From Microgenomates group bacterium Gr01-1014_5 (lineage in GTDB: Bacteria; Patescibacteriota; Microgenomatia; UBA8517; UBA10165): a DNA stretch of 64,000 nt. A program made the translations under genes and the position numbers. The notes below the pieces were generated by a model. That model was not told the DNA's origin. It made no database searches and saw only the letters and a list, made by a program, of their open reading frames with translations. Positions within the stretch are counted from its first letter, which is position 1, and every line of letters begins with the position of its first letter. The stretch is from NCBI GenBank assembly GCA_007376395.1, contig VMGE01000001.1, positions 25,635-89,634 on the forward strand, in the 5' to 3' direction. Below, one piece after another: positions 24,516-25,873 of the stretch.

Positions 24516-24561
24516 TCCTCCTTTCTTATAAGGCTTATTTCTGCTAAAATTGACCCAAACT

Positions 24562-25107
24562 ATGCCCGACTTTGTTAACTCTATATATCAATTCTTTAAC
24601 CATCCTTTTTTTATAATTTTTGGTGGAGTTGCTTCTCTTTTGGTTCTCACTGGTTTTTTACTAAACTTTGTCTTTTGGCTTCTGGGTCTCTGGCCTTTGT
24701 TATGGCGACTAGGTTATGGTAGATGGTCAAGAAAGATAGCAATTGTTGCTAAAGCTGATGTGTATGCTGATCTCAAGAAGGTTTTAGTTAAATCAGGGGT
24801 CTTTAGAGAGGGAAATGTCTTTCATATATCCTCCACCTCTCTTTCTGAGGTCAAAGAATCTGATATGTTGCTAGTGCATTACCAATCCTTTAATGAGCCA
24901 CAAAACAAAACAATACTGGCAAATAAGCGGTCGAGCTCTGGTATGATCTTTTATTTTCCTGAATACGCTCCCCAACAAGGAATAAAAATATCTGATGCTA
25001 TGTTAAAACGGATTAATGATGAAGAAAATACAACAGTTGTCAATTTTCGTGGCAGGTTACTAAATGACATAATTACTACTTTAATAACAACTAGTTACGA
25101 GAAATGA
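24562..25107 (+). CDS. 2TM membrane protein with cytosolic C-terminal domain (SLATT-like candidate effector/partner of the downstream NTase)
   Basis: Two adjacent TM helices (FFIIFGGVASLLVLTGFLLNFVFWLLGLWPLLW). Track start TTG 24550; ATG 24562 is more likely. Stop is 1 nt before the next ATG. Confidence 0.45.
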   Translation: MPDFVNSIYQFFNHPFFIIFGGVASLLVLTGFLLNFVFWLLGLWPLLWRLGYGRWSRKIAIVAKADVYADLKKVLVKSGVFREGNVFHISSTSLSEVKESDMLLVHYQSFNEPQNKTILANKRSSSGMIFYFPEYAPQQGIKISDAMLKRINDEENTTVVNFRGRLLNDIITTLITTSYEK

Positions 25108-25108
25108 T

Positions 25109-25873
25109 ATGTCTGCAGACCAATATATTTTAAATATCCTAGCAAAATATAATGTTGATACTAGTAATGGATCTCCAGTAATTACAGCCGCTCAGGCAGT
25201 ATATCCAATCTTGGCAAATTGGGCAGGGAATCAATTAGTTGATGTTAAATTTTCAGGATCGCATGCAAAAGGAACTGGTGTTTCTGGAAAAACTGACACA
25301 GATTTATTTATATCTTTGAAATCGAATACATCAAATACACTTAAAGAAATTTATAACTCACTTAATAGTTTGATGTTGGGAAAGGGTTATAATACAAAAC
25401 CTCAGAATGTCTCTATACGAATAAATCACAATGGGATAGAGATAGATCTTGTTCCAGGTGTTAAATATTCTGATAATTCAAATTATCATTGGCTCTATGT
25501 TAAAAAGTCTGGTAGAGAAAGAACACAAACTAATATCGATAAGCATATTGATATTGTGACAAACTCAGGGAGGGTTAATGAAATTCGGGCAATTAAGATT
25601 TGGGCGTATAATCATGGACTTGATTTACCATCTATTTATCTTGAACTGACTGTCATAGAAGCTTTATCAGGAAGAAGAATTGGTAATACTGCGGATAATG
25701 TATTGCATACATTAGAATTTATAAGAGATAGATTTTTAAATTTATCTATAATTGACCCATCAAATAGTGCAAATATTATTTCTAATGATTTAACAGATGA
25801 TGAAAAAAGGAAAATTTCTAATCAAGCAAGAATTAGCAAAGCGCAGGGTTACTGGAAAGATATTCTTTGGTAG
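25109..25873 (+). CDS. polβ-superfamily nucleotidyltransferase, cGAS/DncV(SMODS)/OAS-like; alternative call ANT/KNTase-like
   Basis: FSGSHAKGTGVSGKTDTDLFISL ([GS]x9-13 DxD); C-terminal helical domain IKIWAYNHGLDLPSIYLELTVIEAL resembling OAS/CD-NTase LPPxYALELL. Confidence 0.6.
   Translation: MSADQYILNILAKYNVDTSNGSPVITAAQAVYPILANWAGNQLVDVKFSGSHAKGTGVSGKTDTDLFISLKSNTSNTLKEIYNSLNSLMLGKGYNTKPQNVSIRINHNGIEIDLVPGVKYSDNSNYHWLYVKKSGRERTQTNIDKHIDIVTNSGRVNEIRAIKIWAYNHGLDLPSIYLELTVIEALSGRRIGNTADNVLHTLEFIRDRFLNLSIIDPSNSANIISNDLTDDEKRKISNQARISKAQGYWKDILW

Follow-up and report, generated by a model that had tools for sequence, protein, structure and literature searches.

A probable two-gene type I CBASS operon with a pseudo-receiver membrane effector in a Microgenomates bacterium

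Here we describe two adjacent genes in a 64,000-nucleotide stretch of DNA (the window) that was placed, by exact-identity matches, in the Microgenomates group bacterium Gr01-1014_5, a member of the candidate phyla radiation. Both gene products are listed as hypothetical proteins in the public annotation of this genome. The upstream gene encodes a small membrane protein of 181 amino acids (aa) and the downstream gene a nucleotidyltransferase, and the two very probably form the effector and the cyclase of an antiphage signalling system based on cyclic oligonucleotides (CBASS). The locus as a whole can with good likelihood be regarded as a two-gene type I CBASS operon. An earlier reading, made from the letters of the DNA alone (the sequence-only reading), had proposed a synthase of the SMODS or cGAS/DncV-like nucleotidyltransferase (CD-NTase) kind with a small membrane effector, which is the simplest CBASS architecture. 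This proposal has held up: both proteins matched PADLOC models over their full length (PDLC00803 for the cyclase and PDLC00664 for the effector), the cyclase matched SMODS just above the cut-off and is modelled with the fold of CdnC, CdnB and CdnD, and the pair recurs elsewhere. Neither Cap2/Cap3 nor HORMA/TRIP13 was found among the seven upstream neighbours and the downstream genes of the pair, the domains of which belong only to restriction-modification, nuclease, protease and type IV secretion proteins, and a cyclase with an effector but without these partners nearby indicates type I.

The class of system is already known, and automated defence finders would call the pair in the window. As compared to type I CBASS with a transmembrane (TM) effector, that is, PDLC00803 with PDLC00664, the window pair is the same, with full-length matches, two genes, intact catalytic residues and no structural difference, and represents a new instance in a candidate-phyla-radiation host. 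It documents CBASS in a reduced-genome bacterium of that radiation, in what looks like a variable defence slot beside type IV secretion genes. Two points appear worth following, namely a pseudo-receiver sensor common to CBASS and type III CRISPR, and a very small cyclase without a partner. We put at about even the chance that the receiver-like domain of the effector represents a cyclic-oligoadenylate receptor of a new class that has no relation to CARF, SAVED, STING and the Cap15 barrel and is interchangeable among at least three CD-NTase lineages and type III-B CRISPR, and that the cyclase is a self-contained phage sensor without a regulatory partner.

The cyclase and the membrane effector

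The cyclase is a protein of 254 aa, the length given by the sequence-only reading, and it aligned with the PADLOC CBASS cyclase model PDLC00803 from end to end (4.2e-85, model positions 1-253 of 253). Conservation of its residues was followed in an alignment of 39 homologues, which are 43-80% identical. Residues 48-70, FSGSHAKGTGVSGKTDTDLFISL, contain the nucleotidyltransferase core, and G50, K54, T56, D63 and D65 are invariant in the alignment. With the third catalytic aspartate (Table 1), the set GS...DxD...D is intact as judged from the sequence. Residues 171-186, LDLPSIYLELTVIEAL, include the invariant S175, L178, E179 and L186. Thus, both motifs quoted in the sequence-only reading are present and conserved across the homologues.

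The AlphaFold model of the cyclase (pLDDT 90.7) has a Pol-beta core followed by a C-terminal helical lobe, like the solved CD-NTases. Its best matches in PDB by Foldseek were CdnC of Escherichia coli MS115-1, CdnB of Bacteroides fragilis and CdnD of Pseudomonas aeruginosa (E 1e-12 to 1e-10, best 1.4e-12; TM-score 0.75-0.81 on the query), while other CD-NTases, archaeal CCA-adding enzymes and NF90/NF45 ranked lower. Comparison of the family profile with all PDB sequences returned CdnC (1.2e-11), Bacillus cereus CdnD (1.7e-10) and P. aeruginosa CdnD (4.3e-8). The hidden Markov model (HMM) search and the model comparison, both proposed as checks in the sequence-only reading, thus favoured the CD-NTase side through PDLC00803, SMODS and the CdnC/CdnB/CdnD folds. 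The nearest solved relatives, E. coli MS115-1 CdnC and P. aeruginosa CdnD (TM-score 0.75-0.79 on the query), belong to type III CBASS with 3',3',3'-cyclic tri-AMP (cA3) as signal and NucC as effector, and most members of the short-cyclase family also pair with NucC. The window cyclase differs from these two enzymes in its length (254 aa as compared to 300-321 aa), in having no HORMA/TRIP13 and in being joined to a membrane effector instead of NucC. The solved CD-NTases within the 50 best structural matches are all larger (271-374 aa), and a partner-less enzyme as small as this one offers a compact subject for the question of how a type I CBASS cyclase is switched on.

An antibiotic nucleotidyltransferase of the ANT/KNTase kind, with an unrelated membrane partner, had been offered as the alternative in the sequence-only reading. 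In its favour there is no more than the length of 254 aa and the GS...DxD core that is generic to Pol-beta. No such family was found in the Pfam and NCBIfam scans of the cyclase, aminoglycoside and lincosamide nucleotidyltransferases accounted for none of the top 50 Foldseek matches, and none of them appeared in the PDB sequence or profile searches. Moreover, the neighbouring membrane gene is catalogued as a CBASS effector and is conserved beside cyclases. The HMM, PDB and fold searches, which are the evidence by which that reading had meant the alternative to be judged, refute it, and we give it next to no probability.

The effector aligned with PDLC00664, a PADLOC CBASS effector model labelled '1TM', over model positions 2-173 of 174 (2.7e-62). 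It also matched C3a59 (1.7e-36), a model of TM proteins accessory to type III CRISPR, and Mem_04 (8e-5), a type III CRISPR accessory model described as two N-terminal TM helices with a globular domain, maybe a diverged CARF. Homologues of the effector numbered 455, mostly of 175-185 aa, and its profile run against 1.84 billion cluster representatives (50% identity) gave 279 members, most of them 160-185 aa long and a few with a longer N-terminus. Mean column identity over 35 sequences was 69%, and two motifs were invariant in these homologues, P45/R49-L50-G51/G53-R54-W55/R57 and N161/R163-G164-R165-L-L-N168-D169. No Pfam family, SLATT included, matched the effector at E<=0.1; therefore, the protein is not a SLATT effector, and the suggestion of a SLATT identity in the sequence-only reading was not borne out. 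SLATT proteins, reportedly described as two-TM effectors by Burroughs and colleagues in 2015, resemble it in being small membrane proteins encoded beside a SMODS nucleotidyltransferase. The window effector differs in that a receiver-like domain of ~125 aa makes up most of the protein, and we know of no SLATT protein with such a domain.

In the AlphaFold model of the effector (pLDDT 82), a helix over residues 15-40 and a second one over residues 44-56 are followed by a beta-alpha domain of five units over residues 57-178. Hydropathy analysis gave a single continuous hydrophobic stretch at about residues 15-48 (34 residues), with a 19-residue Kyte-Doolittle mean of up to 2.46. The sequence-only reading had counted two adjacent TM helices. 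Its hydrophobic membrane segment stands, and its second TM helix is doubtful: the model has one 26-residue helix and an amphipathic helix, and the PADLOC label is '1TM'. On hydropathy and model together, the number of TM helices is uncertain. The hydrophobic segment is followed by basic residues and, by the positive-inside rule, the C-terminal domain would be cytoplasmic.

Foldseek matches of the effector in PDB were weak (E 1e-3 to 1e-2) and consistently fell on the N-terminal domain of CpaE and on the receiver (REC) domains of response regulators, with TM-scores of 0.6-0.69 on the target. DNPH1-like nucleoside hydrolases ranked lower. We therefore checked the canonical REC set, in which strand 1 is followed by two acidic residues, strand 3 ends in the phospho-acceptor Asp, strand 4 is followed by a Thr/Ser and strand 5 by a Lys. 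These phosphorylation residues are not present in the effector, where the positions after strand 1 are variable and strands 3, 4 and 5 are followed by H106/Y107, Y131/P133 and N161/R163, respectively. There was no match to Pfam Response_reg, and hhalign against CheY gave a probability of 0.1%. With the key residues missing and a null alignment to CheY, a canonical phospho-receiver was rejected, and on its model the domain is best named a pseudo-receiver. The most conserved residues of the effector sit at the C-terminal ends of strands 3, 4 and 5, which is the classical ligand face of the receiver/flavodoxin fold. CARF, SAVED, Cap15, Cam1 and Csx23 were also considered as the sensor, and none of them turned up when PDB was searched by sequence or among the 50 best Foldseek hits. 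To our knowledge, the sensor fold of this effector has never been studied experimentally.

In Cam1, Csx23 and Cap15, TM helices at the N terminus are coupled to a small nucleotide sensor in the cytoplasm, by which depolarisation or disruption of the membrane is triggered. They share the proposed logic with the window effector, the sensor of which is, however, neither the CARF fold of Cam1 nor the tetrameric domain of Csx23 nor the beta-barrel of Cap15. There is also a likeness to Cam2, a membrane protein of type III CRISPR that has a TM segment at its N terminus and a REC domain at its C terminus and is predicted to disrupt the membrane (Hoikkala, Graham & White 2024, PMC11229360). The window effector has an N-terminal TM helix and a C-terminal receiver-like fold as well, it matches C3a59, and its family is also found after cmr2-cmr6. 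This likeness is one of architecture, as taken from the published description. The partners differ, being a CD-NTase for the window effector and Cas10 for Cam2, which is itself a prediction. The window effector provides CBASS-side evidence for a pseudo-receiver (REC-like) domain as a cyclic-oligonucleotide sensor, an idea published so far only as the prediction of Cam2.

Pairing of the effector with cyclases

The cyclase gene was found directly 3' of the effector gene in 55 of 63 effector-seeded metagenome loci, these being the loci with at least 800 nucleotides (nt) downstream. The pairing is far beyond chance. Co-occurrence of the membrane gene with the nucleotidyltransferase in other genomes, on which the sequence-only reading had made its proposal depend, is thus strong. 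In these loci the two genes mostly overlap by a few bases. The downstream cyclases that could be classified (56) comprised 37 SMODS+AGS_C proteins of ~446 aa (PDLC00785), 15 of the window type with ~260 aa (PDLC00803) and 4 of ~320 aa (PDLC00823). In one of the eight exceptions (L158:4974-7815), the effector homologue is convergent to a type II CBASS (cyclase PDLC00822 with a Cap2 E1-E2 protein) and has no downstream cyclase of its own. On an IMG/VR viral contig (L161), a 439-aa SMODS+AGS_C cyclase comes after an effector homologue, which indicates that this type of CBASS is carried by phage or prophage as well. The closest relatives of the window cyclase (L162-L166, 61-80% identity) all have a gene for a protein of 169-180 aa upstream, separated from the cyclase gene by 1 nt as in the window.

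A first test of co-occurrence, seeded with the cyclase, had found the effector within the fetched flanks of 3 of 80 genome loci, and directly preceding the cyclase in two of the 80 (L005 and L007). This low count is explained by the short-cyclase family mostly using NucC. Where an open reading frame (ORF) of 225-285 aa followed the short cyclase, it belonged to a single family in 58 of 59 such loci, and this family matched the PADLOC NucC model at 2.5e-88. Over 101 short-cyclase loci, NucC was present downstream in 69, the membrane effector upstream in 22 and neither in 10. In the genome loci L001-L080, the short (~253-aa) cyclase mostly forms a minimal two-gene system with NucC, without HORMA/TRIP13. 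Relatives of the short cyclase are encoded in 364 species-representative genomes, and hosts include Paenibacillus, Clostridium, Proteobacteria, Acidobacteriota, Cyanobacteria, Chloroflexota and Bathyarchaeia.

Homologues of the effector are found in type III CRISPR operons as well. In two loci (L136 and L137), an effector homologue (PDLC00664 2e-68) directly follows cmr2-cmr6. The order in L136:15-5988 is type III-B cmr2-cmr6, then the effector homologue, then a 98-aa Csx3/Crn3 protein (Pfam 5.5e-22), and no CRISPR array was found within 5 kb downstream of the effector in this locus.

Comparison of sequence identities separated the histories of the two genes. The window effector shares 63-71% identity with the effectors of ~446-aa SMODS+AGS_C cyclases (L081-L115 compared), but only 35-41% with those of L163 and L165, although the cyclases of L163 and L165 are 72% and 61% identical to the window cyclase, respectively. 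Because of these discordant identities, the effector and the cyclase in the lineage of the window and L162 have different histories, which implies module exchange between CBASS lineages. As compared to other type I CBASS, the window thus joins the effector lineage of the long cyclases to a short cyclase, the relatives of which carry another effector lineage or NucC. Three-gene operons were seen in L030:1936-4753 and L132:4959-7616, with the gene order effector, 439-aa SMODS+AGS_C cyclase and short (~250-aa) cyclase of the window family, and no NucC. This layout suggests that both types of cyclase can feed one effector, and loss of the middle gene from such an operon would yield the combination found in the window.

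The signal and the proposed mechanism

We consider the chance that the signal is cA3 to be slightly better than even. The nearest solved enzymes make this nucleotide, as E. coli CdnC and P. aeruginosa CdnD are cA3 synthases, NucC is the majority partner of the cyclase family, and the effector family is also found beside Cas10. These three associations are independent of each other. B. cereus CdnD is a cA3 synthase as well (PMC13424991), and NucC is a cA3-activated nuclease common to CBASS and CRISPR (PMC11229360). In a neighbour-joining tree, the clade of the window cyclase is sister of a NucC-linked clade. The position of the effector homologue after cmr2-cmr6 in L136 and L137 suggests that the effector family also reads the products of Cas10, which are cyclic oligo-adenylates. 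Cam2, with its TM segment and REC domain, is predicted to sense cA3 on the ground that it adjoins NucC and SAVED-CHAT (PMC11229360).

The same CBASS architecture may work with another messenger, and the receiver-like domain would then sense cyclic tetra-AMP (cA4), a trinucleotide other than cA3 or a cyclic dinucleotide. The effector of L136 is directly followed by Csx3/Crn3, and Crn3 is a cA4-specific ring nuclease (PMC12409355); it is this neighbour that holds the assignment of cA3 in the window system so close to even. At least three cyclase families, and Cas10 as well, are partners of the effector family, so that ligand specificity may differ among effector clades. Moreover, the best fold match of the cyclase by TM-score is CdnB, which is not a proven cA3 synthase. 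Against these points, the L136 effector is only ~42% identical to the window effector, NucC accompanies the short cyclase in the majority of loci and in the sister clade, and the best solved relatives by profile are CdnC and CdnD, both makers of cA3. A messenger other than cA3 is thus possible, if unlikely. As NucC and the membrane effector alternate on one cyclase family, and some operons place two cyclases with one effector, the cA3 ligand is a testable prediction and the family offers a natural effector-swap experiment.

In the mechanism that we propose, phage infection would turn the cyclase on, and the cyclase would make a cyclic oligo-adenylate, most probably cA3. The nucleotide would bind the conserved face of the receiver-like domain, made up, where strands 3-5 end, of Y107/S109/F110, Y131/P133 and N161/R163-R165, together with juxtamembrane arginines. 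Binding would be followed by oligomerisation or rearrangement of the N-terminal helices of the effector, and the membrane would be depolarised or permeabilised, by analogy with Cam1, Csx23 and Cap15. The infected cell would then cease growth before phage release. Action of the effector on the membrane is likely.

A guard of the Panoptes kind would work the other way round: a constitutive cyclase would supply a nucleotide that keeps the effector OFF, and phage sponges or phosphodiesterases removing the nucleotide would release the effector. Type II Panoptes (mCpol with CARF-TM) holds its TM effector inactive with cA3 (PMC13577387), and it resembles the window system in being a two-gene operon with a membrane effector and, probably, cA3. 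For the window cyclase, neither a sensor nor a regulatory partner can be recognised, and the operon opens with the effector gene, an order also seen in some guard systems. However, the defining parts of Panoptes, an mCpol cyclase with a 2TM-beta or CARF-TM effector, are not present. The cyclase is a Pol-beta CD-NTase and not the Palm-domain mCpol; the TM segment of the effector is N-terminal and precedes a receiver-like domain, whereas Panoptes CARF-TM has its CARF at residues 1-207 and its TM segment at the C terminus, so that the sensor fold differs and the order is reversed. Panoptes of type I or II was rejected on these differences in parts, and the logic is probably opposite as well. The cyclase family is mostly found with cA3-activated NucC, with which constitutive synthesis would be lethal, and the effector family occurs in a type III-B operon, where the nucleotide is present only upon infection. 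A cyclase family that mostly drives NucC cannot be constitutive, and a ligand-ON effector is required in a family that also works for Cas10. These pairings, as seen in gene neighbourhoods, argue for a ligand-ON effector with an infection-triggered cyclase, and a guard appears very improbable.

Several points weigh against an infection-triggered CBASS with cA3 as its signal. The score of the cyclase with Pfam SMODS (26.6 bits) is only narrowly above the cut-off of 26.5, and that with NCBIfam CBASS_cyclase_a (60.6 bits, 1.4e-16) missed the equivalog cut-off of 200 bits. The cyclase has no sensor domain that would account for its activation. A literature search found no biochemical work on any member of either family. 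The assignment of cA3 is by association of sequences and neighbouring genes, the trees are neighbour-joining trees without support values, and the effector clade of L136 may sense cA4.

Gene layout and genomic setting

The features of the locus and its surroundings are collected in Table 1. The ORF of the effector could also start from TTG 24550, giving 185 aa. ATG 24562 is more probably the true start, as it is used in the public annotation and the alignments of homologues begin there. The start at 24524 given in the sequence-only reading does not lie in the reading frame and precedes the two possible starts by 26-38 nt, and its length of 182 aa is off by 1-3 residues as compared to 181 or 185 aa. 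The separation of the two genes by 1 nt, on the other hand, was read correctly: the effector ends with TGA at 25105-25107, the cyclase begins with ATG at 25109, and both ORFs are intact and co-directional. A promoter scan gave promoter-like sites more rarely than in shuffled sequences, and a terminator scan gave a single terminator-like site, located within the effector gene.

Table 1. Features of the CBASS locus and of its neighbourhood, in positions of the window.
Feature	Position	Strand	Remarks
Effector gene	24562..25107	+	ATG start, 181 aa; CBASS '1TM' effector family, Cam2-like, receiver-like domain, predicted cytoplasmic
Effector TM helix, residues 15-40	24604..24681	+	26-residue continuous helix in the model; Kyte-Doolittle
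Juxtamembrane amphipathic Trp/Arg helix, residues 44-56	24691..24729	+	Helix in the model; carries the first invariant motif
Alpha/beta domain, predicted cytoplasmic, residues 57-181	24730..25104	+	Five beta-alpha units; flavodoxin-/receiver-like; putative cyclic-oligonucleotide sensor
Cyclase gene	25109..25873	+	Minimal CD-NTase (SMODS), 254 aa
Cyclase catalytic core G50-S51 and D63-x-D65	25256..25303	+	Read from sequence; G50/D63/D65 invariant, S51 nearly so
Third catalytic Asp, D113, motif (I/V)DLVP	25445..25447 (GAT)	+	D113, L114 and P116 invariant in the alignment
PLD-like nuclease (152 aa), SNF2-family helicase (1073 aa), N6-methyltransferase with Type ISP C-terminal specificity domain (1095 aa)	14112-21370	+	
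Small defence-island-like genes: 168-aa protein without family call, PD-(D/E)XK/Cas4-like nuclease (275 aa), 145-aa protein, 420-aa protein	21372-24337	+	
49-aa ORF	24362-24511	+	Strongly hydrophobic C-terminal helix, WWIVGAILLILAIFFLFVV; between the protease and effector genes
Type IV secretion system (T4SS)-like cluster	25879-31092	-	M23 peptidase, VirB4/TraG-like ATPase (605 aa), TraC-like, PrgI-like, T4SS pilin/TrbL-like (454 aa), TrbC/VirB2 pilin

The T4SS-like cluster adjoins the cyclase gene downstream and is convergent to it. The junction of CBASS and T4SS genes is kept in L162 and L163, while the restriction-modification genes on the other side differ; the site of the CBASS genes looks, from these arrangements, like a variable defence slot. 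The pair might alternatively be an accessory of the adjacent secretion or conjugation cluster, acting for example in entry exclusion or signalling and not against phage, since it abuts the same M23 peptidase and VirB4-like genes in the window and in these two relatives. The pair is, however, oriented convergently to the T4SS genes, and in L165, L166 and most of the other 160 loci it occurs without T4SS genes and beside restriction-modification genes. Both protein families are, moreover, CBASS models. We regard such an accessory as extremely improbable and retain the CBASS operon.

The pair lies at the edge of a low-GC stretch of ~15-26 kb (positions of the window), with a GC content of 0.31-0.36 as compared to ~0.38-0.44 in most of the window and a general value of ~0.40 outside the stretch. 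The stretch coincides with the restriction and CBASS genes and is consistent with a horizontally acquired defence island. The three genes at its upstream end (PLD-like nuclease, SNF2-family helicase and methyltransferase) look like a split type ISP or DISARM-like restriction system, in which the start of the Type ISP-like methyltransferase gene overlaps the stop of the SNF2 helicase gene. Among the small genes that follow, the 145-aa protein matches part of Shedu SduA (7e-8), and in the 420-aa protein (23075-24337) TM helices at the N terminus are joined to a trypsin-like protease domain, with a weak NTF2-like match at the C terminus. This TM protease and the 49-aa TM ORF were considered as a third component of the system and rejected, as neither is found beside the pair in L162-L166; the 49-aa ORF is not at the corresponding position in L162 or L163. 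Further downstream, seven tRNA genes (Phe, three Leu, Val, Pro and Gly) are clustered at 38768-39680, and the whole window holds 12 tRNAs.

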